Below are positions 641 to 64,000 of a stretch of DNA of 64,000 bases, piece by piece. Source of the stretch: an uncultured virus (IMG/VR IMGVR_UViG_3300027963_000002) (lineage: Duplodnaviria > Heunggongvirae > Uroviricota > Caudoviricetes); the IMG/VR virus record IMGVR_UViG_3300027963_000002; one strand, given 5' to 3'. Both the position numbers and the translations under genes were made by a program. The notes beneath the pieces were generated by a model. The model was not told the origin of the DNA. It saw nothing but the letters and a program-made list of their open reading frames with translations, and did not search any database. Numbering within the stretch: the first letter of the stretch is position 1; each line of letters begins with the position of its first letter.

Positions 641-2800
641 ATGCCATTACAGAAAATTCAATTGCGCCCCGGTTTAAATCGTGAAGGCACTAACTACTCG
701 AATGAGGGTGGATATTATGATGGTGATAAGATTCGTTTCCGTTCTGGCTACCCTGAAAAAATTGGTGGTTGGACACGGTTAAGCATTAACTACTTCCTTG
801 GTGTTGCTAGGTCGTTATGGAACTGGGCTACATTAGCTGGTGCCAACTTACTTGGTATTGGAACTAACCTTAAATACTATATTGAAAACGGTGGCATTTA
901 CTACGACATTACACCAATCGTTGCCACCGCTAATGAAGTTAATGCTATATCGGTTGGCTTTACAACCCTAGTTAACACTATTTCAAACTCTACTACAACT
1001 GTAGTAATGACTAATGCTAGGTATATGCCCACTCAAAATGGCATTATTAAGATTGATACGGAACAGATTTTTTATAGCACCCTAACAGCCAATACTGCCT
1101 CTTCATGCGTAAGAGGGTTTAACAATACTACGGCAGCTTCTCATACGGCTGGCGCTAATGTATCTAGCGGGTTCTTTCAATGGTATGACACTAATAACGA
1201 TGCTAACAATGGCGATTTTGTTATTATTTCTAACTGCTCGGTATCTAACGTAGGTGGCATAGCTAACACAACTATTAACGGCGAACATCAGACTTTCAAA
1301 TATGCAGCTAACTACAACTACATTTTATCTGCTCCCGGATCTGACAATAACTTATCCAATATTACTTTTAGTACTTCTTCTGCCACAAACTTAGCTAATA
1401 TAACGGTTCAAAATGAATACCCGGTTGGTTTAGCTATTTACTCTATTGGTAATGGCTGGGGTGCTGGGCCTTGGAGTCGAGGTACTTGGGGTTCTGCTTA
1501 TGATACTGGCGCTGGCGTGGGTCAACAGTTGCGGCTTTGGTCTAACGATAACTATGGTCAGGACTTAGTTCTTGCTCCTCGTGGTGGCCCAATTTTTTAC
1601 TGGACGGCGGCAAACGGTACAGGATCTAGAGCGGAGTATCTATCGGCATTAGCTAATACGGCATCCTATAGCGGGCAGTTTGTTCCTAAAATAACCAATG
1701 AAGTTGTAGCTTCAGATATTCAACGATTTGTAATGACTTTTGGTGCTAATTCGTATGACCCTACAAATGCTAATACTGATTTTGATCCTATGTTGGTACG
1801 TTGGTCAGATCAAGAAAACCCCTACGAATGGGTTCCAGCTATAACCAATCAAGCTGGTGAGTTTAGACTTTCGCACGGTTCATATATTGTTTCAACTATT
1901 AACACCCGCCAAGAAGTTTTAGTGTTAACAGATTCGACCGTGTATTCAATGCAGTATTTAGGGCCACCCTATGTTTGGGGCTTCCAAGTAATTATGGATA
2001 ACACTTCAATTATGGGGCCAAATGCAATTATTACAATTAACAACATTACTTACTGGATGGGTACGGACAAGTTCTATATGTATTCTGGTAGGGTGGAAAC
2101 TTTGCCTTGTGCGCTGCGGCAATATGTTTTTGCTGATATTAATAAAGATCAAGCATGGCAAGTTACCGTAGGATCTAATGAAGGATTTAATGAAATTTGG
2201 TGGTTCTATTGCTCACAAAACAGTACGGTAATTGATAAGTATGTAATCTATAACTACTTAGATCGTGTTTGGTCTTATGGTAATTTAAACCGTACTTCGT
2301 GGCTAGATTCTGGTATTCGTCCAAACCCAATGGGTGTGTATATTGTTGGCGCAGATGCTTTATTAAACCCAACAGGGCGAGTTGTTTACCATGAGGTTGG
2401 TAATGACGATGCGGGCGGTTTATCTAGTTTACCCATTAGCGCTTATGTGCAGTCTTCCGATTTTGATATTGGGGATGGGAATAACTTTGCTTATGTCTGG
2501 AGAATGTTGCCCGATGTTAACTTTAATGGCTCAAATGTAGACCAGCCTTCTGTTGTTATGGAACTTCAACCCCGCCAAAACTCAGGTTCAGCCTATGGAG
2601 ATGCAGCTAACGCCACTACAACAAGTTCACAGAACTATGTAACATACCCCCAATATACGGTACAACAGTTTACAGGACAGGTTTATACCCGCTTACGTGG
2701 TCGCCAAATGGCAATGAAAATTAGCTCAAATGGATTGGGTGTAGCTTGGCAGTTAGGCGCACCAAGGATTGATATTAGACCAGACGGAAGACGCTCATGA
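641..2800 (+). CDS. Tail hub/nozzle protein (P22 gp10 / T7 gp12-like)
   Basis: 719 aa, beta-rich, VRWSDQEN and EIWWFY motifs; directly upstream of ejection genes. Confidence 0.65.
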   Translation: MPLQKIQLRPGLNREGTNYSNEGGYYDGDKIRFRSGYPEKIGGWTRLSINYFLGVARSLWNWATLAGANLLGIGTNLKYYIENGGIYYDITPIVATANEVNAISVGFTTLVNTISNSTTTVVMTNARYMPTQNGIIKIDTEQIFYSTLTANTASSCVRGFNNTTAASHTAGANVSSGFFQWYDTNNDANNGDFVIISNCSVSNVGGIANTTINGEHQTFKYAANYNYILSAPGSDNNLSNITFSTSSATNLANITVQNEYPVGLAIYSIGNGWGAGPWSRGTWGSAYDTGAGVGQQLRLWSNDNYGQDLVLAPRGGPIFYWTAANGTGSRAEYLSALANTASYSGQFVPKITNEVVASDIQRFVMTFGANSYDPTNANTDFDPMLVRWSDQENPYEWVPAITNQAGEFRLSHGSYIVSTINTRQEVLVLTDSTVYSMQYLGPPYVWGFQVIMDNTSIMGPNAIITINNITYWMGTDKFYMYSGRVETLPCALRQYVFADINKDQAWQVTVGSNEGFNEIWWFYCSQNSTVIDKYVIYNYLDRVWSYGNLNRTSWLDSGIRPNPMGVYIVGADALLNPTGRVVYHEVGNDDAGGLSSLPISAYVQSSDFDIGDGNNFAYVWRMLPDVNFNGSNVDQPSVVMELQPRQNSGSAYGDAANATTTSSQNYVTYPQYTVQQFTGQVYTRLRGRQMAMKISSNGLGVAWQLGAPRIDIRPDGRRS

Positions 2801-3102
2801 GTACAGGCACTACTAAAGCACCTAACTTACCAATTGCGCCGGTGGAGTATAACCAACAATTCCAAGACCAATTTAATAACGTCTTGCGGCTTTACTTTAA
2901 CCAGCTAGATAATCCGGGACCCTCGGTAATGTCTACACAACGTAACGGAACGGCGGTCATTTCTGCCCTTAATTTTAGCCAAGCCAATGCCACAGGAGTT
3001 AGAGTGATTAGTCTTCCAACCCAGTCTGATTTAGCCAATATTACGGTGGGTTCGGTTTATGTTGATACAGCTAACGCTAATGTTTTGAAAGTCAAGATTT
3101 AA
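2797..3102 (+). CDS. Small virion/tail-associated protein
   Basis: APNLPIAPVEY..NNVLRLYFNQLD N-terminus; coupled to tail hub gene. Confidence 0.55.
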   Translation: MSTGTTKAPNLPIAPVEYNQQFQDQFNNVLRLYFNQLDNPGPSVMSTQRNGTAVISALNFSQANATGVRVISLPTQSDLANITVGSVYVDTANANVLKVKI

Positions 3103-26021: not shown

Positions 26022-26182
26022 AATGGCGCCTCCTCAAATTTATAGAAAAAGGGTTCTTGCTCGGGCGTACGAAAGAAGCTGTAGCGCCAGTTAGGTTTGT
26101 TAGATATAAGTTGCTTAGCTTCCTCTAACCAGCGAACCACACGCATTTTTTCGTTATCTTCGTTGTATATTGAATAAGGCAT
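26018..26182 (-). CDS. Hypothetical protein (54 aa, not in ORF track)
   Basis: MPYSIYNEDNEKMRVV..FEEAPF*, coupled to both neighbours. Confidence 0.5.
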   Translation of the reverse strand: MPYSIYNEDNEKMRVVRWLEEAKQLISNKPNWRYSFFRTPEQEPFFYKFEEAPF

Positions 26183-26973
26183 TAAGCGCTCCGTGGTAAG
26201 GTGCCGCTGAAGTTGTATGAACCCGTATGACTAAAGCTAGCCCAAGGCGCACAGAAAACTTTAAATCCAGCCATCCTTGAAATCTTGCAGAAGTGGTAGT
26301 CCTCTGACAACAGGCGGTTAGATTCTTCATCAATGCTGGTAGCAAAGAATTCTTTAATGATCTTAACCTTACGTACAACATCAACTGCGTGGTACATATC
26401 GTTGGTATAGCTTGGTACTTTATCAGCTAGGTGCTCAAAGACCTTGCGCTTAATCAGCATAAAGCCTGTGCCGCCGTTAGCAATTTCAATAGGCTCATTA
26501 ACGTTGCCTGTAGTCTGACTCTCACCATGCGCTAGGTTAAGAACAAATGCGCCAGTATGAAGATGTAGTTGGTCGGGTGGTACTCCAGCTTTTACGGATT
26601 CGGCTACTTGCACCCAGTTAATTTCTTTCTTAGGATACAAGCCACAGATAATGTCCTTGTCTGCCGCAATCATGCGTGGAATATCAGCGGGGTTAAAAGC
26701 TATATCCGCATCGATAAACATTAGGTGAGTGGCATCGGATTCCATAAAGTCGTAAGCCATCGAGTTTCTAGCACGGGTAATCAACGACTCGTTCATCATA
26801 AAAGAGTAGTACATTTGAATGTTGTTCTGTCCACAAACGCCTACCATCTGCATTACGGCAGAAGAATACATGCCTGTACACATACCACCATACATCGGGG
26901 TAGCTACAAACAACTTAGTCTGTTGTGGTGGCTTTTGTACTTGTATCATTTGTGGTTTCTTTTTAAAGCTCAT
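26182..26973 (-). CDS. GT-A fold glycosyltransferase-like protein
   Basis: LFVATPMYGG, ESLITRARN, LMFIDAD (DxD), GTGFMLIKR, SEDYHFC. Confidence 0.75.
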   Translation of the reverse strand: MSFKKKPQMIQVQKPPQQTKLFVATPMYGGMCTGMYSSAVMQMVGVCGQNNIQMYYSFMMNESLITRARNSMAYDFMESDATHLMFIDADIAFNPADIPRMIAADKDIICGLYPKKEINWVQVAESVKAGVPPDQLHLHTGAFVLNLAHGESQTTGNVNEPIEIANGGTGFMLIKRKVFEHLADKVPSYTNDMYHAVDVVRKVKIIKEFFATSIDEESNRLLSEDYHFCKISRMAGFKVFCAPWASFSHTGSYNFSGTLPRSA

Positions 26974-27122
26974 TTCTTTTCTCCAATAGCGTTATAAACT
27001 TGTGCTGATACTTTTAATACGTAGGCAATATCGTTAGGACTTAATTGACCTAATAGTTGTAATATCTTCATTACTGCAACATCATTATCCAAAGGCTGTG
27101 CCTTAACTAAACTCTCAATCAT
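26970..27122 (-). CDS. Hypothetical protein (50 aa, not in ORF track)
   Basis: MIESLVKAQPLDNDVAVMKILQLLGQLSP..; ATGA overlaps at both ends. Confidence 0.5.
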   Translation of the reverse strand: MIESLVKAQPLDNDVAVMKILQLLGQLSPNDIAYVLKVSAQVYNAIGEKK

Positions 27123-27844
27123 TTCTTTCTCCAAGGTAAAGGCTCACCATAAGATTTTTTTATGGCTTCATTACCCTCTGCAAACATCTTAAGTAGTCTT
27201 TCGGGCGCTCGGTAATTAACCGTAGCCTCTCCTGTGCATCCGAAGGCAGGCAAGCCTGTGCTGGCAGCTTTATAGAAGGGACGGTCTGCGCCCCACTGAC
27301 CATAAAAACTGTGCGCCACAGTAACCAAGAATTCACGCCGAAAGCAATAACAATTAGTATCAACAAAATTGAGAGAATGGTCATAAAACGTCGGGTAGCG
27401 ACCGAGTGATTCGCAATCATCGTCACAAACATATTGTCCTGATTCATCGCAGATTCTCCTTAAACTATAAGCCCACATTAGGTCTTTACTTTTGATCTTG
27501 TTAATCATTGTTTCTACATGGTTAGGCTCGAACCAATTATCTTCGTCTAAAAACAGAATATAGTCGGCATTAACCATTAGCGGCATAGCTGCATAAACTC
27601 GGTGCCCATACCAGCCATTACCCCCTACGTTTTCTGGTAAAGGAATAAACTGTAACGGGTTATCGTAGTTGGGGCTGATTTTATTTAAAAGCATATTGGC
27701 AAAGCGGGTGTATATATCCCCGTTTCCGTCTACCACAACTAAATGCTCAGTCTTGATAGTTTGGTTCCGCACACTTTCTATTGCCTTCAATAGCGTATTT
27801 TTCCCAGTAGTCGGGGTGATTACCATAACCCTAGACATTCCCAA
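27119..27844 (-). CDS. Glycosyltransferase family 2
   Basis: VITPT..AIESVRNQT..VVVDG; YILFLDEDN; WGADR. Confidence 0.85.
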   Translation of the reverse strand: MGMSRVMVITPTTGKNTLLKAIESVRNQTIKTEHLVVVDGNGDIYTRFANMLLNKISPNYDNPLQFIPLPENVGGNGWYGHRVYAAMPLMVNADYILFLDEDNWFEPNHVETMINKIKSKDLMWAYSLRRICDESGQYVCDDDCESLGRYPTFYDHSLNFVDTNCYCFRREFLVTVAHSFYGQWGADRPFYKAASTGLPAFGCTGEATVNYRAPERLLKMFAEGNEAIKKSYGEPLPWRKK

Positions 27845-28082
27845 TCTCCCGCTCTTTAATCATGGCATCGGCTAACTCGTAAGCACGTTTAGCGGCAATC
27901 TCGTCCCATGTTTTATTGGTCAAATCAAACTTCCAGTCAGCCGCAATAATGCCAGCCATAATTGATTTAGCAAATTCGTCCCGCAATCTTGTTCTCATGT
28001 ACCCTGCTTCAATTTCTGCTCTTTCTAAGGCAGTTTGATATCGTAACTCAAGGTCTGCATCTATTGGTTTCTTAGTTGCCAT
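27831..28082 (-). CDS. Hypothetical protein
   Basis: LRDEFA...AYELADAMIKER motif common in small phage proteins. Confidence 0.6.
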   Translation of the reverse strand: MATKKPIDADLELRYQTALERAEIEAGYMRTRLRDEFAKSIMAGIIAADWKFDLTNKTWDEIAAKRAYELADAMIKEREIGNV

Positions 28083-28800
28083 ACCACTCCTTTGGTAGTT
28101 TTAATTCAGGCATATCTAATACGTTACGGGCATCTAGTGGGTGGGGTAAATCTTCTACAAAACCAAGCGCCTCACTTCTGTCTTTACGTAATAGGGTTAA
28201 TTCAAATACCCGTGGCAAATGAATGTCACCAGCCACTACACTTCCACAGTTATTGTTAGGATGGTTGTGCACCACATGAAAGTCTTCGGTTAACTTAGCA
28301 AAGAATGTAGCTACGGTGTTCCAAGCAATTGGATTAAACCACGCATCGGTGTCGTGAATCTCTACACAGATAATCCTAAACTTTTTTAATACACATAGCG
28401 GGGTGGCTATGATAGTTGCATATTCGGCGCCTTCAATATCCATTTGAAGAATCAAGTCCTCACCAAACTGATACGCATCTGTTCCCAATACCCAAGAAAA
28501 TAAAGTTATGTTGTTCTCATCGTTGTATCCGTCTAGATACTTTTTAGTAAACGATAGTGGTGTAATGCCTTTAGGAGCGCCGTCAACAGATCCGTCTGCA
28601 AGGTGTGACCCAATACCCCTACAACACAATCCCACTTCAAAGCTAGCCGTATCAGCAACCCCGGGCGAGAAGCAAGCCGCTATACCATCTAAATCGTCAG
28701 GTATAAGGTATCCACCGTCATTAGCGCCGCCTACCCGTATGAGCTTAAACTTTGTTTGCACAGGGCGTAGTGCTTTAATTAGTTCTTTTAGTTCGTTCAT
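28072..28800 (-). CDS. FkbM-like SAM-dependent methyltransferase
   Basis: RVGGANDGGY, LILQMDIEGAEY, CVEIH, HNHPNN; start taken at MNELKE. Confidence 0.75.
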   Translation of the reverse strand: MNELKELIKALRPVQTKFKLIRVGGANDGGYLIPDDLDGIAACFSPGVADTASFEVGLCCRGIGSHLADGSVDGAPKGITPLSFTKKYLDGYNDENNITLFSWVLGTDAYQFGEDLILQMDIEGAEYATIIATPLCVLKKFRIICVEIHDTDAWFNPIAWNTVATFFAKLTEDFHVVHNHPNNNCGSVVAGDIHLPRVFELTLLRKDRSEALGFVEDLPHPLDARNVLDMPELKLPKEWYGN

Positions 28801-29672
28801 ATCTTCCTCACGTTGTCGCACGATTTACATATACTGCACTTATTAAACTCAGGCTTCTCGTTCATAGCAATAAGATCGAGTAAGGGTTTACTTGTAAATA
28901 TCTCATCATAAGTTTGGGTTAATAAGTTACCTATAACGTGTTTTAGGTTGTAGTCCATACAGCACAGCACTACATCACCATTGGGTAATAAAACGTTGCG
29001 ATCATAGAATGGTGTAGAGGCACAGGTTAAGGCAAAGGCATGGCGTGGGGTAACGCTTAATGCTTGGTCGCCTACTTGTTCTACGTTAAGGCTATCTGCT
29101 CTTGTATGACCTTTCCAACCAGCTAAGTCACCAATCATGTCTTGAAGATCCGCATGAACCTTACCTGAACCATCCATAGTCATGGCGTTAAACCCACAAG
29201 GTAATTCAAGCTGGGTCATTATCTTTAGCGACTCTACCCACTCATCGGAATACTTCCAGCCCTTCATGTTGCCGTTGGAATCGGGCAAATGAAACATAAT
29301 TACTTCTACTTGTTTAGGGTGGTCTTCTAGTAACTTCTTAACCTTGCGAGCATCTTCATTAGTCATACCATACAAAGTTGTATATATCGCTACATTAAAG
29401 CCCATGTATATAACTTCTTCTAACATAGTCGTGCAATCGGGGTTAGCCCAAGGTTCCGACATTCCTGAGAAATCAATTCGGGTATTGCGTGGTAGCTTAC
29501 ACAACACAGTTACCAAATCCATCGGTTGCATATACTTAGTTTTATCGCCGTAGTTATTCCGCAAATTTTCCTGCGGGCAAAAGCTACACATGAGCGGACA
29601 CCCTACCATCGTAGTCAACTCCATTACAGGCGAGTGTGGGTGCTGTATGCCGTACTTGCCTCTCATTAGCAA
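28797..29672 (-). CDS. Radical SAM protein with SPASM/twitch domain
   Basis: CPLMCSFC (CxxxCxxC); GMSEP; PNGDVVLCCMD..IGNL..CKSC. Confidence 0.85.
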   Translation of the reverse strand: MLMRGKYGIQHPHSPVMELTTMVGCPLMCSFCPQENLRNNYGDKTKYMQPMDLVTVLCKLPRNTRIDFSGMSEPWANPDCTTMLEEVIYMGFNVAIYTTLYGMTNEDARKVKKLLEDHPKQVEVIMFHLPDSNGNMKGWKYSDEWVESLKIMTQLELPCGFNAMTMDGSGKVHADLQDMIGDLAGWKGHTRADSLNVEQVGDQALSVTPRHAFALTCASTPFYDRNVLLPNGDVVLCCMDYNLKHVIGNLLTQTYDEIFTSKPLLDLIAMNEKPEFNKCSICKSCDNVRKI

Positions 29673-29878
29673 CGTCCGTCCATATCTAAATCTTTTACTA
29701 ATTCTCTTATTCGTTTAGGCTGTTTCTTTGCAAGCGACTCTGACATACCCAATGCTTTACTTAAAACGGATACAAACCCCTCACCTATTAACCAGTCCTT
29801 AGCTTCTTTATCTAGATCAAGCTCGCAAATAGCTGAACCGTCTTTTCTTTCTTTACGTAGTTTAGTTATTATTTTCAT
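29666..29878 (-). CDS. Hypothetical protein
   Basis: 70-aa coupled ORF. Confidence 0.55.
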   Translation of the reverse strand: MKIITKLRKERKDGSAICELDLDKEAKDWLIGEGFVSVLSKALGMSESLAKKQPKRIRELVKDLDMDGRC

Positions 29879-30729
29879 GTAATGCTCCTCACAAATTGAA
29901 TTGCGCCAGCTAAACTTGGCGCTTGGTTAAGTAATGGTTGTTCATACATCTCTTTATATAAACCAAATTCTCTATCGAACCAGCTTATATCGTGCAAAAA
30001 TATTTCTGTTCTTTTAAAATCTTGGTAGTTAATAAATGCTTTTCTATTAAAGTCGTCGTTAACCGATATGTCACCGCTATACAATGGCACAGTAAGTCCA
30101 GCGTATGCATCAATTAACTTCTCTGTAACGTATCCGTCATAGATTGAATTCTCAGGGCATAGGCAGAACTTATACTCAGGAAGTATGTCGAACTTAGATT
30201 TGCGTAGTGAGTTACCAAACATCAACCCATAGCCATCTACTTGCTTGTATTGCGAAAGGGTATTAAACAAATTAACCCGTAGCCCTTCAGGATTGCCAGC
30301 AATCATGGCACAGAACTTATTCTTAATACTCATGTCCAGCTTACGTGCTTGTGTAAGACTTTTAATGTCAAGCAGTTGTTCATATCCATGATTGTGGGCA
30401 TTAGGTTTTCTAAGCTTTTGTTTAAACCCATCCCATGCTAAGCGGCTCCACCATAAAGGCAAACGAAAATTACGCCCACCATAATTATCGTAGTCAAAAG
30501 AAAGAGAGTGACCGTAGTTAATAAAGTTTGGGCGAACATTCTCACCGATATACATAATCGTTTTCTTAGGGTCAGTTTGTGTATGACCAAAGACTGAGCT
30601 AATAACCACATCAGCTTCGTGTGGGTTAAGCACATAGTCAATACCGTCAAAGGCTGTGCGAAAGAAGAAGTCAAAGAAGTCCCCATCAAACGCACCATCC
30701 CAAAAATTAACGACGCATACCTTTTTCAT
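29875..30729 (-). CDS. GT10 alpha-1,3/4-fucosyltransferase-like protein
   Basis: YIGENVRP; YKFCLCPENSIYDGYVTEKLIDAY..TVPLYSG. Confidence 0.85.
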   Translation of the reverse strand: MKKVCVVNFWDGAFDGDFFDFFFRTAFDGIDYVLNPHEADVVISSVFGHTQTDPKKTIMYIGENVRPNFINYGHSLSFDYDNYGGRNFRLPLWWSRLAWDGFKQKLRKPNAHNHGYEQLLDIKSLTQARKLDMSIKNKFCAMIAGNPEGLRVNLFNTLSQYKQVDGYGLMFGNSLRKSKFDILPEYKFCLCPENSIYDGYVTEKLIDAYAGLTVPLYSGDISVNDDFNRKAFINYQDFKRTEIFLHDISWFDREFGLYKEMYEQPLLNQAPSLAGAIQFVRSIT

Positions 30730-37229: not shown

Positions 37230-37230
37230 A

Positions 37231-50366: not shown

Positions 50367-50993
50367 ATGGCTTATCCAACCGTTTCTGCTCCCTACGGCT
50401 TAGTGCCTGTTAACCGGATCGACTTTATGCCCTATGCTGGGGCTACACGTCTATTGCCAATCGCTAGTACTTATAATACTGCGATTTTCAACGGTGACAT
50501 CGTTATGCTAAAAGGTGGCAATATTATTAAATCAAACGTTACTGTTGATTCAACCACAGACAACACCGCTAATTTGACTTATGGTGTGTTTATGGGTGTT
50601 CAATATGTTAACAGTCAAAGTCAGTTGATTCAGTCGCAATATTACCCCGGTAATGCTGCTGCTACTTCTGCTGTTGCTTATGTTGTTGATGATGCATCTG
50701 CTGCATTTAAAGTAGCTATTACCTATTCTGGTAACACTACAATTACTACAGCTAACTCGTCTATTGTTGGTACGAACCAAACTTTACGTCAAGGTACAGG
50801 ATCCACCACTACTGGTGATTCCGCCGTTTCGCTTATTGCTCCCGTAGTTGGTAGCGGTAACGCAGCAGCAGCACCTGTTCGCGTAGTTGCAGTAGTTCCA
50901 GAAACAGCCTCTAGTGCAAACGCCTACACGGAAGTTATCGTGAAGTTGAATAACCCCCAAATTCTGTTGGCTGCGGCCCAGAATTACGTTTAA
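50367..50993 (+). CDS. Putative capsid decoration protein
   Basis: APYGLVPV, IFNGDIV, GVFMG; immediately upstream of MCP. Confidence 0.6.
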   Translation: MAYPTVSAPYGLVPVNRIDFMPYAGATRLLPIASTYNTAIFNGDIVMLKGGNIIKSNVTVDSTTDNTANLTYGVFMGVQYVNSQSQLIQSQYYPGNAAATSAVAYVVDDASAAFKVAITYSGNTTITTANSSIVGTNQTLRQGTGSTTTGDSAVSLIAPVVGSGNAAAAPVRVVAVVPETASSANAYTEVIVKLNNPQILLAAAQNYV

Positions 50994-51920: not shown

Positions 51921-51942
51921 GTCTTATATAAGACTAATGAAG

Positions 51943-52766: not shown

Positions 52767-52909
52767 TTGGTTGCCATCATCCACAAACCTACATTAGCGC
52801 CAGCGTAACAGATGTAACAGATCAGCATTGGTATGTTTCCCTTAAGACCTTGTTCTACGGCTATGTAAAAATAAATTATGCCAGTTACGATAATAAGCCA
52901 AGCACTCAC
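52763..52909 (-). CDS. Small two-TM membrane protein (48 aa, not in ORF track)
   Basis: MSAWLIIVTGIIYFYIAVEQGLKGNIPMLICYICYAGANVGLWMMATK*, ATGA-coupled. Confidence 0.6.
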   Translation of the reverse strand: MSAWLIIVTGIIYFYIAVEQGLKGNIPMLICYICYAGANVGLWMMATK

Positions 52910-57091: not shown

Positions 57092-57295
57092 ATGGCTGAA
57101 TATAACCAACCAAAACCGTCAGCAACTGATGAAGCTTCATTAGTTAAAGGTGGTAGCGCTATGGACGAACTTAAGATTGCCGTTGGTGGCATTTCTAAAG
57201 GTGTTAATGCTAAAGGCGTAAAGACTTCAGGCGTTAAGCAACGTGGATCTGGTGCGGCTACTAAAGGCTTTACTTCAAGAGGCCCGATGGCTTAA
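57092..57295 (+). CDS. Small protein
   Basis: RGSGAATKGFTSRGPMA C-terminus. Confidence 0.55.
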   Translation: MAEYNQPKPSATDEASLVKGGSAMDELKIAVGGISKGVNAKGVKTSGVKQRGSGAATKGFTSRGPMA

Positions 57296-57984
57296 TGAAC
57301 TACAACGATCTTTTCTCGCAGGTTCAAGCGTATACGGAGAATCAATTTCCGGCTACGTATCTTGCCAATGGAAGTACAGTCAGCTATACAACGCAGATTA
57401 ATACCTTCATTCAGCAGGCAGAAGCTCGCATCTATAATACGGTGCAGATACCTTCTTTGCGGAAAAACGTTACGGGTAATTGTTCTTCTACCACGACTTA
57501 CTTAGGATGCCCTAACGACTACTTATCTACCTATTCAATGGCGGTTATTGATGGAGATGGGGTTTATGAGTACCTTTTAAATAAGGATGTTAATTTCATT
57601 CGTCAGGCTTACCCAGACCCAACAGCGACAGGACTGCCCCGTTACTACGCTCTTTTTGGCTCTAGACTGAATGATCCTAATGAACTAACTTTCATGCTTG
57701 GCCCAAAACCAGACGCTAATTACGGCGTTGAGCTTCACTATTTCTTTTATCCAGAATCAATTGTTACTGCTGGCACGTCTTGGCTTGGTGATAATTACTC
57801 ACCCGCATTGTTGTATGGGTCTATTTTAGAAGCTTATGTTTATATGAAAGGCGACCCAGATATGATGTTAGCCTATAAAGCCAAGTACGATGAAGCAATG
57901 CAGCAATTAAACCGCTTAGGTACAGGACTTGAAAGAAACGATGCCTATAGAGCAGGCCAAGCTTCAATCAAGGTTAACCCATGA
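57295..57984 (+). CDS. Head-tail adaptor / tail tubular protein A-like
   Basis: FIQQAEARI, GLPRYYA, GPKPD, LLYGSILEA. Confidence 0.65.
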   Translation: MNYNDLFSQVQAYTENQFPATYLANGSTVSYTTQINTFIQQAEARIYNTVQIPSLRKNVTGNCSSTTTYLGCPNDYLSTYSMAVIDGDGVYEYLLNKDVNFIRQAYPDPTATGLPRYYALFGSRLNDPNELTFMLGPKPDANYGVELHYFFYPESIVTAGTSWLGDNYSPALLYGSILEAYVYMKGDPDMMLAYKAKYDEAMQQLNRLGTGLERNDAYRAGQASIKVNP

Positions 57985-58401: not shown

Positions 58402-58836
58402 ATGGCAATTTCACAGGGAATGTGTGATTCGTTCAAGGTACAAATCCTTAGCGGTCAGCAAAATTTAACATCAGGTGCAACACCCGTATATAAGATCGCT
58501 TTGTATACTAGTTCAGCTACTCTATCAAACGCAACAACTGCGTACACGACTTCAAATGAGCAGACTAGCTCTAGCTCAAACTACACCGCTGGTGGTAATA
58601 CACTAACAGTTAGCCAAAGTCCTACCTCTACAGGTAACGTAGCGTTTATGTCGTTCTCGAATAGCTCTTGGACTAATGCGAATATCACAGCTAACGGTGC
58701 GTTGATTTATAACTCTACTGCGAATACTGCTGTTGCGGTCTTGGCTTTTGGTGGCGATAAAACTGCTACTAATGGCACATTTTCGATTATCTTCCCCACC
58801 GCTGATTCTACGAACGCAATTATCCGTATAGCATAG
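58402..58836 (+). CDS. Tail structural protein
   Basis: CDSFK, KIALYTSSA, GALIYN, FGGDKT..FPTA..AIIRIA. Confidence 0.65.
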   Translation: MAISQGMCDSFKVQILSGQQNLTSGATPVYKIALYTSSATLSNATTAYTTSNEQTSSSSNYTAGGNTLTVSQSPTSTGNVAFMSFSNSSWTNANITANGALIYNSTANTAVAVLAFGGDKTATNGTFSIIFPTADSTNAIIRIA

Positions 58837-58845
58837 GAGCTTTAA

Positions 58846-59310
58846 ATGGCTCTTGGGTTATACGATAGGGTTAAAGAAACCAGTAATACTTCTGGTACGG
58901 GGACTATTGTCCTTTTGGGAGCTGTTACAGGCTACCAATCTTTTGCCGTCTTGGGAAATGCAAACACAACTTATTACACGATTGCAGACCAAATCGGAAC
59001 AAACTGGGAAGTTGGAATCGGGACTTACTATACGGGTAACGTCTCTCTCGCCCGCACGACCATTATTTCTTCAAGCAATGCGAATGCAGTAGTTAATTTT
59101 ACTAACGTTACACATGATGTATTTATTACAATGCCCGCAGAGACCTCCGCTTTGGGTGGGGCAGGACAGGCAATTCTAGTAAACCAGACTACGGCAACGG
59201 CAAACTATACGATTGCTACAGGCACAAATGGCTTTTCTGTAGGCCCAATAACAACGGCAAACAACGTATCAGTAACGATTGCTAGCGGACAAAGTTGGAC
59301 GGTAATATGA
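58846..59310 (+). CDS. Tail fibre-associated protein
   Basis: DRVKET..GTGT, WEVGIGT, DVFITMPA. Confidence 0.65.
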   Translation: MALGLYDRVKETSNTSGTGTIVLLGAVTGYQSFAVLGNANTTYYTIADQIGTNWEVGIGTYYTGNVSLARTTIISSSNANAVVNFTNVTHDVFITMPAETSALGGAGQAILVNQTTATANYTIATGTNGFSVGPITTANNVSVTIASGQSWTVI

Positions 59311-60479
59311 GCTATATTGCTTCTGGTAACACTGTTACTACTTCTATTAAAATCTCTGGCGATACAACTGGTAATCTTATCTTCACGACTAGCGGAGCAA
59401 ATACAACTGCGCTTACTTTAGATACTGCACAAACTGCTACTTTTGCTGGTTCTGTTTCTCTCTCAAACATTACCTCATCTAGCAACGTAATTATTACTTC
59501 TACTGCATCAAACGGCACAATCAACATGAACGCTTCTACTGGTGGGCTTATTGTTCCTACTGGTACAACGGCTCAAAGACCAGCCAGTCCAGCAGCAGGC
59601 ACATTTAGATATAACACAAGCAATAACGTAACTGAGGTTTATTCAGGCGTTGCATGGACTTCTATTACTTCACAAACATATTCTGCGTCTTATCTTATTG
59701 TTGCTGGTGGTGGTGGTGCGGCAGGCGATATTTCTGGTGGTGCTGGTGCTGGCGGTGTTTTGTCTGGCACTTACACAATGGATATTGGAACAACTTATTC
59801 CATAGTTATTGGTTCTGGCGGTTCTGCTGGCAATGGAAGCAGACCATCAACAGGTGCAACCAACGGAAGCAATACTACAGCTTTAAGTTTAACAGCCGTA
59901 GGTGGCGGTAAAACATACGGATATGCTTCATCAACTACTCAAGCTGGTGCTTCAGGTGGTAGCGGTGGTGGTGGTGGTGGCTCTGATTCTGGATATACAA
60001 CTCCAGGTGGCGCAGGCACTTCTGGTCAGGGTTACGCAGGCGGCAATGGCGGTTATGGCTCAAATTATGGTGGTGGCGGTGGAGGCGGCGCAGGGGCAGT
60101 AGGTAGCGCAGTAGGTAGCGCAGGAAGTTCTACTGGTGGCGTTGGTGTTTCATCTTCAATTACTGGTTCTGCTGTTTATTACGCAGGTGGAGGCGGTGGT
60201 GGTTATAACGGTTCAGGTAGCGGTTCTGCTGGCGGTTCAGGTGGCGGTGGTACAGGTGGAACTGCATCTGTATCAGCAGTAGCTGGAACTGCCAATACTG
60301 GTGGCGGTGGAGGTGGTGCAACAGGCAGTCAATCAGGTGCGGCTGGTGGTAGCGGAGTAGTTATATTTAGTGTACCAACTACTAACTACACAGCAACTAC
60401 TACTGGTAGCCCAACAGTTACTACTTCTGGTAGCAACACAATTATGAAATTTACAGCATCAGGTTCTTACACGGCTTAA
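59307..60479 (+). CDS. Gly-rich tail fibre/adhesin 1
   Basis: PTGTTAQRP, RYNT, YLIVAGGGG, polyglycine repeats, GGSGVVI. Confidence 0.75.
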   Translation: MSYIASGNTVTTSIKISGDTTGNLIFTTSGANTTALTLDTAQTATFAGSVSLSNITSSSNVIITSTASNGTINMNASTGGLIVPTGTTAQRPASPAAGTFRYNTSNNVTEVYSGVAWTSITSQTYSASYLIVAGGGGAAGDISGGAGAGGVLSGTYTMDIGTTYSIVIGSGGSAGNGSRPSTGATNGSNTTALSLTAVGGGKTYGYASSTTQAGASGGSGGGGGGSDSGYTTPGGAGTSGQGYAGGNGGYGSNYGGGGGGGAGAVGSAVGSAGSSTGGVGVSSSITGSAVYYAGGGGGGYNGSGSGSAGGSGGGGTGGTASVSAVAGTANTGGGGGGATGSQSGAAGGSGVVIFSVPTTNYTATTTGSPTVTTSGSNTIMKFTASGSYTA

Positions 60480-60493
60480 CAAAGGAGATTCTA

Positions 60494-60862
60494 ATGAGCC
60501 ATTATGCAAAAGTAGTAGACGGTAAAGTTACACAAGTAATTGTGGCTGAAGCCGATTTTTTTAACAACTTCGTGGATTCTAGTCCAGGTCAGTGGTTGCA
60601 AACCAGCTATAACACCCGTGGCGGAAAGCATTACGACCCTACTACAGGTCAAGAAGACGGTGGTGTTGCTCTAAGAGGTAATTACGCTGGTATTGGTTAT
60701 TCTTATGACTATATCAATGACGTATTTATTGCACCCAAACCATTCTCAAGCTGGAAACTAAACGATACTACATGGACATGGGAAGCACCAACACCTATGC
60801 CAGACGGTCAGTATCAATGGGATGAAGCCACGACATCGTGGAAAGAAGTAGTACCTGCTTAA
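60494..60862 (+). CDS. Tail fibre-associated protein
   Basis: MSHYAKV, WLQTSYN, NYAGIG, W.APTP. Confidence 0.6.
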   Translation: MSHYAKVVDGKVTQVIVAEADFFNNFVDSSPGQWLQTSYNTRGGKHYDPTTGQEDGGVALRGNYAGIGYSYDYINDVFIAPKPFSSWKLNDTTWTWEAPTPMPDGQYQWDEATTSWKEVVPA

Positions 60863-60871
60863 GGAAAAGCT

Positions 60872-61951
60872 ATGCCAGTAATTATTAGCGGCGGTTCAGG
60901 AAGTGCAAATCTAAGTGGAGACACTGGTCTTACTGCGTCTAATATTACTAGCTCAGCTAACATAACAATTACTTCCACTGCTTCAAATGGCACAATCAAT
61001 ATGAATGCCACTACTGGTGGTTTAATTGTTCCAAAAGGGACAGATGCGCAACGCCCTGTAAATGCAGCGGCTGGTACGTTTCGTTTTAATACAAGCAATA
61101 ATGCAACTGAAGTTTATTCTGGGGTTGCTTGGGTAACATTAACTTCTCAAACATATTCTGCATCTTATCTTGTTGTGGCGGGTGGAGGCGGAGGTGGAGT
61201 TTATGGTGGTGGCGGTGGAGCAGGTGGATTGCTTACTAATTCCACAACATTAAATGGTGGCACAACTTATACAGTTACCATTGGTGCTGGTGGTACAGGT
61301 GGTACATCAAGACCTGTTATTGGTGGAAATGGTGGAAATTCTTCAGTTTTTAGTCAAACTGCTATTGGTGGTGGTGGTGGCGCAAGTGATAATGGTGGAA
61401 CAACTAGCTCTAGCGTAACTGTTGGCGCTTCAGGTGGTTCAGGAGGTGGAGGCTCATATCCAAGTAGTTCTGCTGGTGGAGCAGGTACATCTGGTCAAGG
61501 CTACGCAGGTGGTTCTGGGGTAAATTCTGCTTCTAGCTATGGTGGTGGAGGCGGAGGTGGTTCTTCAGCTATTGGAAGCAATGGCTCTGGTAGTGCTGGA
61601 GGAAATGGTGGTGCTGGTACAGCTTCTTCTATAACTGGCTCTAGTGTTACTTATGCTGGCGGTGGCGGCGGCGGCGCTCAAAGTAGTGGTACTAGAGGCA
61701 CAGGTGGCTCAGGTGGCGGAGGAACAGGTGGCAATAGTTCAAATGTACCGACTGCAGGTACTACAAACTTAGGAAGCGGTGGCGGTGGAGATGGTAATGG
61801 TGTTACTGGAGCAAATGGAGGTTCTGGAATTGTAATTATTAGTGTTCCAACTACAAACTATTCTGGCACTACTACAGGTAGCCCGACAGTTACTACTAGC
61901 GGCTCAAACACAATTATGAGTTTTACTGCTTCTGGTAGTTACACAGCCTAA
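60872..61951 (+). CDS. Gly-rich tail fibre/adhesin 2
   Basis: Paralogue of 59307..60479. Confidence 0.75.
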   Translation: MPVIISGGSGSANLSGDTGLTASNITSSANITITSTASNGTINMNATTGGLIVPKGTDAQRPVNAAAGTFRFNTSNNATEVYSGVAWVTLTSQTYSASYLVVAGGGGGGVYGGGGGAGGLLTNSTTLNGGTTYTVTIGAGGTGGTSRPVIGGNGGNSSVFSQTAIGGGGGASDNGGTTSSSVTVGASGGSGGGGSYPSSSAGGAGTSGQGYAGGSGVNSASSYGGGGGGGSSAIGSNGSGSAGGNGGAGTASSITGSSVTYAGGGGGGAQSSGTRGTGGSGGGGTGGNSSNVPTAGTTNLGSGGGGDGNGVTGANGGSGIVIISVPTTNYSGTTTGSPTVTTSGSNTIMSFTASGSYTA

Positions 61952-62232
61952 TGCCAAGCACAATAAATGCCCAAGCTGGCAACGCCTCACAATGGACTGC
62001 GCTAATTAAAACAGCGAACGGTACGGCAAATCTATCTTTACAAACTAATGGTTCAACTGCTCTACTTATAGATCAGAATCAAAATGCTAACTGTACTTCA
62101 ACGGGCGCTATAAAAATCCCAGCAGGTACAACTGCACAAAGACCTAGCCCAGCAGTAAACGGTATGGTTAGATATAACACAACAAACGCAAAGCTAGAAG
62201 GCTATGCAAACAATTCTTGGGCGGTATTTTGA
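61951..62232 (+). CDS. Short tail fibre-like protein
   Basis: PAGTTAQRP..GMVRYNT module without Gly-rich tip. Confidence 0.6.
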   Translation: MPSTINAQAGNASQWTALIKTANGTANLSLQTNGSTALLIDQNQNANCTSTGAIKIPAGTTAQRPSPAVNGMVRYNTTNAKLEGYANNSWAVF

Positions 62233-64000
62233 CTACTAAACTTAACGCCTCTACAGCAGGTTTAGTTGAAACTGTTGATACTTCTGGAATTTTAGAACTT
62301 CAGACAGCAAACACAACCGCAATAACTATAGATACTAGCCAGAATATTAACTGCGCTTCAACGGGCGCTATTGTTGTTCCACTGGGTACTACAGCACAAA
62401 GACCGACAGCAGCCAATGGGATGCTTAGATATAACACTTCTATATCTAATTTTGAGTCTTATATTAATAACGCATGGGGTGTATTTACTGTTACTTTTGC
62501 TCCTGTTAATTCGGTCGCCCCTGTAATTTCTGGCTCTAATGTCTTTGTAGGGTCTAACTTAACTTCTACTACGGGTACATGGACTAATACTCCAACGTCC
62601 TACGCATACCAATGGTTAGCTAATTCAACCGCCATAGTAGCCAACGCTACGGCTAACGTCTTTACACTAACTGCAACCCAGACGGGCGCTAATATAACCT
62701 GTAATGTAACGGCAGTAAATGCCGCTGGAAACTCGACTCCTGCTACATCAAATACGCTTGGCCCAGTCGTTGCTGGTGTTACTGCTAGTTACCTAGTTGT
62801 AGCTGGTGGTGGTTCTGGAGGTGGTGGGTATAACAGCGGTTCAGGAACTTCTGGTGGTGGCGGTGGCGGCGCTGGCGGACTTTTAACTGGTACAACAATT
62901 CTTCAATTAGCAAATACGTATTCAATCACTATTGGTGCTGGTGGTGCTGGTGTTACTGGTGGCGGTGGTGGTATTAATGGATCTAATTCATCAATTACTG
63001 GTCTTACTACTGTTGTAGGTGGTGGTGGCGGTGGTGGTATTGCCCCTGGCGGTGTATTTACTCAGGCTAAAGCTGGCGGATCAGGTGGTGGTGCTGTTTC
63101 TGGTGCGGCATCTAGTGGCGGAGCAAACGTTGCTAGTCAAGGATATTACGGTGGAAATAATAGTGGTAGTTACGCTTCTGGTAATTATCCAGCTGCTGGT
63201 GGCGGTGGAGCTGGTCAGGTTGGTCAAGATGTTGTTAGCACTTCAGTTGCTGGATCTGGTGGAAATGGTGTAAGTTCATCAATTAGTGGCTCTGCTATAA
63301 CTTATGCTGGCGGTGGCGGTGGATCTACATATAATGGCGGAACTCCAGGATCTGGCGGCTCAGGCGGTGGCGGTGCTGGTGCTAATGGAAGTGCTAACGG
63401 AACTAATGGCGCTACTAATTTAGGTGCTGGTGGTGGCGGAACAAGCTCTACTGGTGGAAACTATACAACTGGCGCTGGCGGTTCAGGCATTGTAATTATC
63501 AGCTACACAGGCGCACAACAATTTGGTGGCGGTGTAATTACAACCGATGGCACAAACACTATCCACACATTCAATACAAGTGGTGTACTAAGTCCTATTA
63601 GTTCTTTATCTGCAAGCTATTTAATAGTAGCTGGTGGCGGTGGTGGCGGTGCAAACTACGGAGGCGGTGGTGGTGCTGGTGGTTTACTTGCTTCTAATGT
63701 AACCATTGATACAAATTCAACTTACACAATTACTGTAGGTTCTGGAGGCGCTGGTTCGCCAGCAGTTATAGCAGGTAATATTGGTGGTAGTGGTTCTAAT
63801 TCAGCATTTAGTGCATATGCTACAGCCGCAGTTGGCGGTGGTGGTGGAGCAGGACAAAATAGTGCTGCTGGTGCTAATGGTGGCTCAGGAGGCGGTTCAG
63901 CCGTATCTGCTTCTGTTTCTTCAGGAACTGCTTCACAAGGAAATGCTGGCGGTCAAGGTGCTACAAGCGCAAACTATGGCGGTGGTGGTGGTGGTGGCGC
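62229..64000 (+). CDS. Gly-rich tail fibre/adhesin 3 with Ig-like domain (partial, not in ORF track)
   Basis: TTG start overlapping upstream TGA; frame open to window end; APVNSVAPVISG..TGTW..YAYQW Ig-like domain then two Gly-rich domains. Confidence 0.75.
   Translation, partial: MTTKLNASTAGLVETVDTSGILELQTANTTAITIDTSQNINCASTGAIVVPLGTTAQRPTAANGMLRYNTSISNFESYINNAWGVFTVTFAPVNSVAPVISGSNVFVGSNLTSTTGTWTNTPTSYAYQWLANSTAIVANATANVFTLTATQTGANITCNVTAVNAAGNSTPATSNTLGPVVAGVTASYLVVAGGGSGGGGYNSGSGTSGGGGGGAGGLLTGTTILQLANTYSITIGAGGAGVTGGGGGINGSNSSITGLTTVVGGGGGGGIAPGGVFTQAKAGGSGGGAVSGAASSGGANVASQGYYGGNNSGSYASGNYPAAGGGGAGQVGQDVVSTSVAGSGGNGVSSSISGSAITYAGGGGGSTYNGGTPGSGGSGGGGAGANGSANGTNGATNLGAGGGGTSSTGGNYTTGAGGSGIVIISYTGAQQFGGGVITTDGTNTIHTFNTSGVLSPISSLSASYLIVAGGGGGGANYGGGGGAGGLLASNVTIDTNSTYTITVGSGGAGSPAVIAGNIGGSGSNSAFSAYATAAVGGGGGAGQNSAAGANGGSGGGSAVSASVSSGTASQGNAGGQGATSANYGGGGGGG

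Follow-up and report, generated by a model that had tools for sequence, protein, structure and literature searches.

The outer tail proteins of this phage carry an excess of N-x-S/T sequons beyond chance, and the phage encodes a five-gene sugar cassette; together these suggest that the tail may be sugar-coated. The window, meaning the whole 64,000-nucleotide stretch of DNA analysed, covers the greater part of the ~65-kb genome of a short-tailed phage that belongs to the very abundant HTVC023P-like group; no tRNA genes were found in the window. Our main reading, to which we assign a probability of roughly 0.4, is that the surplus on the distal tail parts reflects selection for sequon-directed sugar modification by the phage's own cassette, in the host cytoplasm and before assembly.

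Sequon enrichment in the distal tail proteins

Window and genome are circularly permuted with respect to each other, and 641-2800 belongs to the same tail module as 58402-64000. The virion genes considered here are listed with their sequon counts and the expectations from 2000 whole-protein shuffles.

641..2800, + strand: virion structural protein (phrog_3287), 719 aa; 17 sequons vs 10.8 expected, z 2.15
2797..3102, + strand: tail-module protein, 101 aa; 4 vs 1.9
50367..50993, + strand: protein encoded directly upstream of the major capsid gene, 208 aa; 5 vs 3.2, z 1.1 (reverse motif 7 vs 3.1)
57295..57984, + strand: SU10-type tail adaptor (PF24175, E 1.3e-21); 4 vs 2.3
58402..58836, + strand: tail protein with a fibre-tail-adaptor-like beta fold, 144 aa; 7 sequons among 14 Asn vs 4.2, z 1.7
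58846..59310, + strand: protein with a widespread fibre N-terminal domain over its first ~100 residues, 154 aa; 8 sequons among 14 Asn vs 3.4, z 3.0
59295..60479, + strand: glycine-rich tail fibre (PF21722, Gly_rich_2, E 6.9e-14), 394 aa; 12 vs 6.3, z 2.8
60494..60862, + strand: inter-fibre protein of unknown function (phrog_7759), 122 aa; not sequon-rich, 1 vs 0.9
60872..61951, + strand: glycine-rich tail fibre (PF21722, E 5.2e-18), 359 aa; 12 vs 7.4, z 2.1
61951..62232, + strand: fibre-N-terminal-type protein, 93 aa; 7 sequons among 13 Asn vs 2.5, z 3.35
62217..63998, + strand: glycine-rich tail fibre cut by the window end (Gly_rich_2, E 5.2e-27), 594 aa; 18 vs 11.1, z 2.4

When the six tail proteins of 58402-64000 are pooled, 64 Asn have Ser or Thr at +2, where 35.9 would be expected (z 5.4). 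The signal persists when residues are shuffled within blocks of 20 or 10 (z 5.3 and 4.9), and at all other offsets from -5 to +5 |z| is at most 2.0. Adding 641-2800 and 2797-3102 brings the total to 86 vs 53.4 (z 5.6), with the reverse motif S/T-x-N flat at 56 vs 53.2 (z 0.5). In the same eight proteins D-x-S/T and Q-x-S/T show no surplus (z -0.2 and -1.6), which makes the excess Asn-specific. It is stronger for N-x-T (z 5.3) than for N-x-S (z 2.1), and the X position is never Asp, Glu or Lys (0 vs ~4 expected). The enrichment thus has the signature expected of an acceptor sequon: Asn only, +2 only, and X without Asp, Glu or Lys. Two of the fibres (59295 and 60872) are paralogous at 58% identity; with paralogous segments masked (2073 of ~2560 aa left), the count is 68 vs 42.5 (z 4.7), a value reached by none of 500 shuffles.

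The protein-by-protein counts of the sequence-only reading were all reproduced, and the shuffle and reverse-motif comparison set beforehand as a check gave a forward count above expectation beside a flat reverse one. For the fibre at 59295 that reading had used the ATG start at 59307, from which 11 sequons are counted, as against 12 from the TTG start. The fibre at 62217 includes the WLANSTAIVANATANVFT...GANITCNVTAVNAAGNST stretch that it cited; the full-length counterpart in a relative (L003) has 927 aa and a C-terminal Laminin_G_3 domain.

Enrichment is confined to distal tail proteins. The other 71 ORFs of the window hold 86 sequons vs 100.9 expected (z -1.6), and no enrichment is seen in the major capsid, portal, terminase, internal or replication proteins. 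The major capsid protein is sequon-poor (3 vs 3.0; forward/expected 0.6-0.76 across its family), and the 2436-aa internal protein, for which ~6 sequons had been claimed, has 6 vs 9.6 expected. The five sequons previously attributed to 50367-50993 are present, but they do not amount to a specific forward enrichment, given the reverse count.

The AF2 model of 58402 (pLDDT 90.4) aligns in VIA-align with a baseplate chain of Klebsiella phage KP1 (Z 12.2) and the fibre-tail adaptor of phage GP4 (8jou_a, Z 8.4); Foldseek returned no match for it at E<=0.001. In this model, sequon Asn 21, 43, 60 and 87 lie in loops, and 94, 104 and 124 in a long hairpin. The 58846 family has 153 relatives in IMG/VR, and +2 specificity is absent from its pooled homologues. 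The 61951 protein matches 19 PHROG families of fibre-like N-termini. The exposed distal parts that would be modified are the adaptor-like 58402, the fibre-base proteins 58846 and 61951, the three glycine-rich fibres, and 641-2800 with 2797-3102.

A glycan-building cassette in the replication arm

The sequence-only reading had taken the genes at 26.2-30.7 kb for glycan enzymes. Pfam, PDB, Atlas and Foldseek matches bear this out and identify a real glycan-building cassette.

26182..26973, - strand: GT-A-fold glycosyltransferase with DxD and a weak Anp1 match, adjoining the DNA polymerase gene; candidate first enzyme
27119..27844, - strand: GT2-family glycosyltransferase (PF00535, E 1.1e-11, 45.4 bits vs a cut-off of 23.3)
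28072..28821, - strand: probably an FkbM-family methyltransferase, as a lead from its Atlas feature score of 0.99 to FkbM clusters, 249 aa
28797..29672, - strand: small radical-SAM enzyme with a SPASM domain (PF13186, E 2.1e-10; PF04055, E 3.4e-07)
29875..30729, - strand: homologue of the Helicobacter alpha-1,3-fucosyltransferase, GT10 (PF00852, 56.4 bits; PF18025; PDB 2nzw, E 1.7e-25, residues 3-268)

The 28072 protein has no sequence match in Pfam, NCBIfam or PDB. The radical-SAM enzyme falls into an Atlas cluster of 1554 mostly viral members. More than 8000 homologues of 26182 were found, and its DAD motif is invariant in 27 sequences of the family. The top Foldseek matches of its AF2 model (pLDDT 64.6) are STIV A197, mimivirus R699/R655, ColGalT1 and Mnn9, all at TM ~0.4; PBCV-1 A64R (TM 0.29-0.37) and ppGalNAc-T are also among the matches, all of which are weak (TM ~0.3-0.4). 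On this predicted structure, the weak resemblances thus include viral enzymes linked to virion glycosylation (A197, R699/R655, A64R) and the protein-directed ColGalT1 and ppGalNAc-T. Profile matches to GT41 are absent from the window, as stated earlier, and from five relatives, of which three have a CheckV completeness of 90% or more. STT3 was likewise not found.

Under our main reading, one GT-A-type enzyme, either 26182 or the GT2 protein 27119, would place the first sugar on the tail proteins in the host cytoplasm ahead of tail assembly, and the remaining cassette enzymes would extend, fucosylate and methylate it. The linking residue would be Asn and not the Ser/Thr two places on. A coat of this kind would change the properties of the tail surface; stability, self-adhesion and recognition by host defences or grazers are examples.

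The cassette is part of the early/replication arm and is separated from the fibres by 28 kb, and T4-like phages carry the same GT-A family between the clamp gene (gp45) and gp46. This placement fits a DNA-directed or other role. Against such a role, the cassette travels with tail and capsid-side alleles and not with replication genes: its three glycosyltransferases, methyltransferase-like protein and radical-SAM/SPASM enzyme stay together in 10 genomes that have diverged in replication and packaging genes (TerL 55-83% identical). The 50367 allele class likewise travels with it, at 64-92% identity in all eight cassette-bearing relatives that have 50367 and at most 47% in 13 others.

Sequon surplus and the GT-A family across relatives

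We compared the window with 31 related genomes by summing per-genome forward, reverse and expected counts within groups. The sums are 611/528/442 for cassette-bearing genomes, 350/276/301 for those with the GT-A family only, 197/186/183 for those with a distant GT-A, and 687/668/604 for those without a glycosyltransferase, so that a forward-only surplus goes mainly with possession of the GT-A family. An unbiased scan covered 91 gene clusters in 29 genomes. It put the 26182 family in first place for forward-reverse asymmetry (p 0.0029) and the other cassette genes at the top for forward z (p 0.0005-0.005); neither relatedness nor the number of tests (91) is corrected for in these values. One independent lineage, G030, has only a 40%-identical GT-A and counts of 42/24/24.3. 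Among 80 loci encoding the 58846 family, close relatives of the window rank first to third (z 5.4, 4.8 and 4.2; median ~1).

Orthologues of 641-2800 show a graded forward/expected ratio: 1.54 with the cassette (149 vs 96.8 in nine orthologues), 1.26 with GT-A only, 1.18 with a distant GT-A, and 1.02 without a glycosyltransferase (97 vs 95.2 in ten). The nine cassette-bearing orthologues carry 12-21 sequons each, spread over 42 distinct columns of which 16 are singletons, a turnover at constant density. The sequence-only reading had looked to orthologues without glycosyltransferases as a test, and the answer is divided: 641-2800 is enriched only with the cassette, but the 58402 and 57295 families are forward-enriched where no glycosyltransferase is detectable (1.37 and 1.24).

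Other results weigh against the link. Tail alleles are common to the cassette-bearing genomes, which places the association close to one evolutionary event among non-independent relatives, and the proportion contrast between GT-A-positive and other genomes (window + 31) reaches only ~z 2.1. Several cassette-bearing genomes show little forward/reverse asymmetry (G019 63/59, G046 62/59, G047 82/77). Phage phiM12 has a 38%-identical GT-A homologue and an FkbM methyltransferase, yet in its tail proteins the forward motif occurs 67 times and the reverse motif 82 times, with 73.3 expected. Cassette-bearing and glycosyltransferase-free genomes differ neither in an extended motif nor in a preference for Thr. 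Sequon Asn is no better conserved than other Asn (0.70 vs 0.716), and cassette-bearing orthologues keep only 54% of their sequons. The earlier proposal of selection for N-glycosylation of surface virion proteins is upheld as to the Asn-specific distal-tail enrichment and the existence of a cassette, and weakened by the mixed orthologue result and this unremarkable conservation.

Alternative explanations

It is quite possible, at somewhat below even odds, that the surplus simply comes with the structure or composition of the fibre and adaptor domains, which are beta-rich and rich in Asn, Ser and Thr and would undergo no modification, and that the cassette serves another purpose, such as decorating phage DNA or changing host envelope glycans during infection. 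The first part draws on the baseline enrichment without glycosyltransferases in the 58402 and 57295 families, joined by the 58846 family at 1.21; on the ordinary conservation of sequons; and on the glycosyltransferase-free genomes, which exceed expectation by 12% at both +2 and -2, as strand periodicity predicts. The 641-2800 difference also stems partly from inserted Asn/Ser/Thr-rich segments missing in other orthologues. A structural habit of this kind should, however, push up D-x-S/T or the reverse motif as well; both are flat in the window's tail proteins, and same-fold homologues in most relatives are not enriched.

For the second part, the replication-gene setting, the fixed gp45/gp46 position in T4-like phages and phiM12 all fit another role for the cassette. 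According to PMC12619734 and PMC9599517, what phage glycosyltransferases usually do is modify DNA or the host serotype. The known DNA-hypermodifying enzymes (Pyle et al. 2024, cited in PMC12619734) resemble the cassette in having glycosyltransferase genes within the replication module. Unlike in those systems, the search of the window's 79 ORFs turned up no hydroxymethylase, no TET/JBP-type base oxygenase and nothing else that could supply a base for sugar attachment. Neither GT10 fucosyltransferases nor FkbM-type methyltransferases are, to our knowledge, DNA enzymes.

We consider it unlikely that the tail sequons are glycosylated by a cytoplasmic enzyme of the host, for instance an N-glycosyltransferase of GT41 type, with the cassette being unrelated or doing no more than elaborating the glycan. 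In favour of this reading, none of the known N-linking families is represented in the phage by an initiating enzyme, the 58402 family in some glycosyltransferase-free relatives has 47 sequons vs 34.4 expected (reverse 33), and GT41 homologues do occur in the kinds of bacteria infected by related phages, a control search having matched Caulobacter and Synechococcus. The forward-only surplus nevertheless tracks a phage gene family.

Equally improbable is O-glycosylation of the motif's Ser/Thr by the cassette, with the upstream Asn as recognition residue. Bacterial flagellin glycans and mycobacteriophage virion glycans are both O-linked, the tail proteins are 20-31% Ser+Thr, and one 26182 homologue (43% identical, locus L386) lies in a flagellin-glycosylation-like island. 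Yet the motif found is exactly the classical N-sequon, we know of no O-glycosylation motif in bacteria that reads N-x-S/T, and the flagellin adjoining the homologue is not enriched (11 vs 8.7).

Comparison with known systems

The proposed phage system would resemble HMW1C/ApNGT (GT41) and HMW1-type adhesins in that a fibrous surface protein would be modified at many N-X-S/T sites while still in the cytoplasm, before export or assembly. A 26182 homologue in Luteimonas (L403) directly follows a 1511-aa two-partner-secretion adhesin. The candidate phage enzymes are instead small GT-A and GT2 proteins rather than GT41, the cassette is not adjacent to its putative substrates, and the Luteimonas adhesin is not sequon-rich (11 vs 11.6).

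In L386, the homologue sits between fliT/fliS/fliD/flagellin and O-methyltransferases with a small radical-SAM/SPASM gene, a set resembling the phage cassette. This context was seen in only 1 of 21 bacterial loci examined, and its radical-SAM protein is barely like that of the phage (E 0.001).

In mycobacteriophages, virion proteins are believed to receive a sugar coat from glycosyltransferases that the phage encodes (Freeman et al. 2023, cited in PMC12619734), much as we propose here. The glycans described there occupy the C-termini of capsid and tail-tube subunits, whereas the present signal lies at N-x-S/T on distal fibres and adaptors and the capsid is sequon-poor.

Finally, the giant eukaryotic virus PBCV-1, a chlorovirus, uses its own GT-A enzymes and methyltransferase activity to build methylated, fucose-containing N-glycans on its capsid, independently of the host secretory pathway. 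Its sites are atypical and non-N-X-S/T, unlike the putative ones of the window phage, and its A64R is the enzyme noted above among the weak fold matches of 26182.

Genome organization and relatives

The window is nearly the whole genome of a short-tailed phage, whose main features are listed by ORF start or coordinates and strand.

44282 (+), terminase
45826 (+), portal
51006 (+), HK97-type major capsid protein
55710 and 57295 (+), SU10-type adaptor proteins
58402 to the window end (+), fibre module, which resumes at the window start
51, endolysin, part of the module at the window start
641, structural protein of 719 aa, part of the module at the window start
window start, ejection-like proteins, also part of the module
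8639-15949 (+), internal virion protein of 2436 aa with an LPD38 domain at residues 2141-2314
16-44 kb (-), replication genes and the glycosyltransferase cluster

Cultured phages are distant: the closest, HTVC023P-type pelagiphages and Planktothrix/Synechococcus phages, reach a portal identity of ~44% at best. Related genomes measure 61-67 kb. Comparison over window 44282-52000 reveals strong mosaicism: genomes that share a major capsid protein at 81-97% identity have terminases and portals that are only 49-83% identical. At the place of the 2436-aa internal protein, relatives encode proteins of 1551-2074 aa that are barely alike. A contig 97% identical to the window (L003) shows the content of ~5 kb past its end, where the rest of the 62217-type fibre (927 aa in all, with a Laminin_G_3 end) and a 300-aa unknown protein are followed by a homing endonuclease, a fibre-like protein, a chaperone-like protein and a DUF7338 protein. 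The window carries no tRNA genes, which were sought as a clue to the host.

A directional sequon surplus in the tail proteins

The sequence-only reading had described the external virion proteins as packed with N-x-S/T sequons, and its counts all reproduce on recount. The six proteins of 58402-64000 hold 64 forward sequons (N, then S/T at +2) against 35.9 expected from composition-preserving shuffles (z 5.4), and z remains at 5.3 and 4.9 under 20- and 10-residue block shuffles that keep local composition. Every other offset from -5 to +5 gives |z| <= 2.0 in these proteins, and the remaining 71 window ORFs hold 86 forward sequons against 100.9 expected. With 641-2800 and 2797-3102 added, eight tail proteins carry 86 forward sequons against 53.4 (z 5.6), the many sites typical of N-glycosylation substrates, whereas the reverse motif S/T-x-N stands at 56 against 53.2, and D-x-S/T and Q-x-S/T are flat. 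In this set N-x-T (z 5.3) exceeds N-x-S (z 2.1), and D, E and K never occupy the middle position. The two mid-sized fibres are paralogues (58% identical) and 61951 resembles the start of 62217; with paralogous segments masked, the forward count is 68 against 42.5, a value reached by none of 500 shuffles. The block shuffles, the offsets, the Asp, Gln and reverse controls and the masking therefore establish a real signal that is specific for Asn, position and direction, and composition, low complexity and duplication are ruled out as its source.

Nor do these folds carry the surplus in general. Of 153 IMG/VR relatives of the 58846 family, the 80 that were kept show no +2 peak when pooled (661 at +2, 495-636 at other offsets). 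When Ser/Thr-rich ORFs are scored per locus, close relatives of the window rank first to third by forward z (5.4, 4.8 and 4.2; median ~1). The capsid-side protein 50367, listed as decoration-like in the sequence-only reading, holds more reverse than forward motifs. The portal (45826-48282) and its orthologues have a conserved family quirk, with N-x-S/T depleted to 0.36-0.71 of expectation and S/T-x-N raised to 1.65-2.5 in every genome class.

The predicted fold of 58402 is a beta domain (pLDDT 90.4), and the model resembles baseplate (Z 12.2) and fibre-tail-adaptor (Z 8.4) proteins of other phages; a Foldseek search with it returned no match at E <= 0.001. Four of its seven sequon Asn lie in loops and three in a long hairpin. 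Both 58846 and 61951 are fibre-base-type proteins, and 59295, 60872 and 62217 carry the glycine-rich phage fibre domain PF21722 (52.8, 66.3 and 95.8 bits; cut-off 24.3).

A plausible glycan-building cassette

Five minus-strand genes at 26.2-30.7 kb form the candidate modification cassette.

26182 (-), GT-A-fold protein by predicted structure, with an invariant DAD motif
27119 (-), GT2 (PF00535)
28072 (-), methyltransferase lead
28797 (-), small radical-SAM/SPASM enzyme
29875 (-), clear homologue of the Helicobacter alpha-1,3-fucosyltransferase (GT10)

The phage thus encodes glycosyltransferases of three kinds (GT2; GT10, PF00852; and the GT-A-fold protein), and a glycan-building function of the cassette is plausible. 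The sequence of 29875 places it among the GT10 alpha-1,3/4-fucosyltransferases: it carries both GT10 domains (PF00852, 56.4 bits, cut-off 23.9; PF18025, 35.6 bits, cut-off 27.2) and matches H. pylori FucT (PDB: 2nzw) over residues 3-268 at E 1.7e-25. A language-model search groups 28072 with FkbM methyltransferases (Atlas feature similarity 0.99 to clusters with PF05050 in 55-59% of their members); this serves as a lead only, and the protein has no Pfam or NCBIfam match, PF05050 and TIGR01444 included. Sequence comparison of 26182, 27119 and 28072 with solved structures gave nothing meaningful. At least three of the five genes recur in each of nine other contigs at 57-93% identity, in the early arm in every carrier.

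The cassette departs from the known N-glycosylation systems. Like the substrates of HMW1C/NGT-type (GT41) enzymes, the tail proteins offer many acceptor sites, but the GT41 gene is missing: PF13844 is unmatched among 79 window ORFs, as had been read from the sequence alone, GT41 is not among the L003 genes in the ~5 kb past the window end, and none of five relatives (three at least 90% complete by CheckV) matches at E <= 0.1. The oligosaccharyltransferase system (PglB/AglB/STT3) differs in two respects, since STT3 (PF02516) is found neither in the window nor in the five relatives and the bacterial extended sequon D/E-X-N-X-S/T is not followed (among 85 sequons, position -2 is D three times and never E). 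Mycobacteriophage-type virion glycosylation likewise involves phage-encoded glycosyltransferases; here, their tie to virion proteins is an indirect, statistical association only.

Cassette and surplus among related genomes

We fetched 31 related contigs whole and scored Ser/Thr-rich proteins of at least 90 aa for forward and reverse motifs and shuffled expectation.

Motif totals by genome class (our own sums over per-genome rows)
Cassette present, including the window: n = 10; forward 611; reverse 528; expected 442
GT-A family only: n = 6; forward 350; reverse 276; expected 301
Distant GT-A only: n = 5; forward 197; reverse 186; expected 183
No glycosyltransferase found: n = 11; forward 687; reverse 668; expected 604

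Where the GT-A family is lacking, forward and reverse motifs both rise slightly, as expected from strand periodicity; genomes that have the family show an additional rise that is forward only. Cassette and surplus are statistically linked among the relatives. An unbiased scan covered 91 gene clusters, each present in at least four and missing from at least four of 29 informative genomes (three genomes with <1400 aa of Ser/Thr-rich proteins were excluded). The 26182 family ranks first of the 91 for forward-reverse asymmetry (mean 0.88 vs 0.22, p 0.0029) and the remaining cassette genes lead for forward z (p 0.0005 to 0.005), all p values being uncorrected for relatedness and for the 91 tests; a simple proportion contrast reaches only ~z 2.1 by our arithmetic. 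G030, whose sole GT-A is 40% identical and whose tail alleles are divergent, has 42 forward and 24 reverse motifs against 24.3 expected. Near-zero asymmetry occurs in several cassette-bearing genomes (forward/reverse 63/59 in G019, 62/59 in G046 and 82/77 in G047).

The idea that orthologues from phages lacking glycosyltransferases would lose the enrichment holds for one family and fails for three. Forward/expected in 641-2800 orthologues falls from 1.54 with the cassette through 1.26 and 1.18 to 1.02 with none, part of the difference being inserted segments that other orthologues lack. The 58402, 57295 and 58846 families are still enriched where no glycosyltransferase was found (1.37, 1.24 and 1.21). 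A search of 43 of 48 candidate ORFs in six cassette-free genomes, the other five having window homologues of known kind, yielded only one weak GT-A (in G011). The cassette travels with particular alleles of 50367, 58402, 57295 and 641-2800 (64-96% identity within carriers, 30-65% to others). Because cassette-bearing genomes share these tail alleles, a single event may account for much of the association. The terminase and portal trees cross the cassette split; TerL of G017, for example, is 82% identical to that of the cassette-free G003.

At the level of sites, neither an extended motif (positions -4 to +5, sequons vs other Asn) nor the Thr share sets cassette-bearing genomes apart across three genome classes. 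Site-specific constraint is likewise rejected: conservation is 0.70 at sequon Asn vs 0.716 at other Asn, and 0.734 at +2 Ser/Thr vs 0.697 at other Ser/Thr. Among orthologues from cassette-bearing genomes, just 54% of sequons are retained. Since nine orthologues carry 12-21 sequons each over 42 columns in all, this low persistence fits selection on density; it fits an absence of site-level function equally well. GT2 was discarded as a correlate of enrichment, its Pfam profile giving only weak, sub-threshold matches over 16 contigs that are unrelated to enrichment. Sequon avoidance in non-tail proteins of cassette-bearing genomes was also discarded (~665 vs 672, no depletion).

The GT-A family outside the phage group

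Homologues of the GT-A occur widely, in a mixture of contexts. We examined 21 of 37 bacterial or MAG loci, with ORF sets of 48 of 74 (all of locus L379 and small ORFs left out) and 93 of 137 (small ones left out). At a gammaproteobacterial locus (L386:407-11882), the 26182 homologue lies between fliT/fliS/fliD/flagellin and a block of genes for two methyltransferases, a TylF-like O-methyltransferase and a small radical-SAM/SPASM protein. This set of enzymes is unusual, and the locus is a candidate island for flagellin glycosylation. Another homologue directly follows a two-partner-secretion adhesin in Luteimonas. Neither this adhesin nor the flagellin is sequon-rich, and bacterial neighbours were rejected as natural substrates. 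Several mycobacterial loci pair the GT-A with a methyltransferase and have PE/PPE genes nearby. Chromosomal homologues in Mycobacterium/Actinomycetota (L376, L377 and L373; 49-52% identical) are partnered by a 315-443-aa SAM methyltransferase and an AMP-binding enzyme near PE/PPE genes.

Five of the examined loci are T4-like phage replication modules. In T4-like phages (phiM12 16408-17385, which is L407, and L385, L387, L388, L389 and L406) the gene is fixed beside sliding clamp and clamp-loader genes, a position that may point to a role linked with replication or DNA in these phages. The cultured phage phiM12, with the gene between the clamp and gp46, gave no enrichment as an independent test: its tail proteins hold 67 forward and 82 reverse motifs against 73.3 expected, counted in the first 100 of 195 kb, which contain the annotated structural genes. 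The best cultured carrier of the family is 30-39% identical.

Interpretation

We rank tail glycosylation driven by the cassette as the single most likely explanation, although only slightly ahead, since the surplus is genuine and takes the shape of an acceptor sequon, the cassette is plausible and its presence is statistically associated with the surplus. Just behind it stands a habit of fold or lineage combined with a cassette that has another target. The shared tail alleles and the three families enriched without a glycosyltransferase are consistent with such a habit; the 58846 family without a +2 peak and the forward-only rise in GT-A genomes point back to cassette-driven glycosylation. Also counting against glycosylation are the cassette-bearing genomes with near-zero asymmetry, the ordinary conservation of sequon Asn, the motif balance of 50367, and the adhesin, flagellin and phiM12 tail proteins without enrichment. 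Linkage to Asn is the least secure step of the glycosylation reading.

In its fullest form, this reading proposes that a small GT-A-fold family (26182-like), unrelated to GT41 and oligosaccharyltransferases, would attach the first sugar to Asn in the N-x-S/T sequons that tail fibres and adaptors carry, and would do so in the bacterial cytoplasm. Tail parts assemble in that compartment. The GT2, fucosyltransferase, methyltransferase and radical-SAM enzyme would then complete a methylated, fucosylated coat. We give this combination of a new N-glycan initiator and finishing enzymes, in a common aquatic phage group, a probability of about 15%.

If true, a third and independent way of making N-glycoproteins would exist among bacteria and their viruses, the first to be found in a tailed phage, and its bearers would rank among the most abundant phages of natural waters. 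A small GT-A as the first enzyme would be a new kind of protein glycosyltransferase, useful for glyco-engineering. In IMG/VR the phage group has more than 600 capsid-gene relatives, and over 8000 homologues of the GT-A family are present in the protein collection; a glycan coat would therefore matter for very common environmental viruses, and on host-recognition parts it would affect adsorption, host range, particle stability and decay. To our knowledge, mycobacteriophages are so far the only tailed phages documented to carry sugar coats on their particles. Our literature search found no description of sequon-directed or Asn-linked glycosylation in a tailed phage, and the portions of the HTVC023P-type literature consulted mention glycosyltransferases only in passing. 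The shortlist for testing comprises the five enzymes and three small candidate substrates (58402, 58846 and 61951).

Other genes

An endonuclease VII/HNH gene at 57981-58400 (+) separates the tail adaptor from 58402. Its sole homologue in a comparison with 14 related genomes is that of G003 (38% identity), which makes a mobile homing endonuclease probable. A 162-aa ORF at 52296-52784 (-) sits between the capsid gene and 53058, on the strand opposite to the late structural operon that surrounds it, and its homologue occurs only in G018 (40% identity). The run at 33417-40494 (-) encodes a DUF2201 VWA-like/metallopeptidase protein, an AAA ATPase, a GATase_4-like protein (weak match) and an Amidoligase_2 protein, and may form a system that ligates peptides or metabolites.
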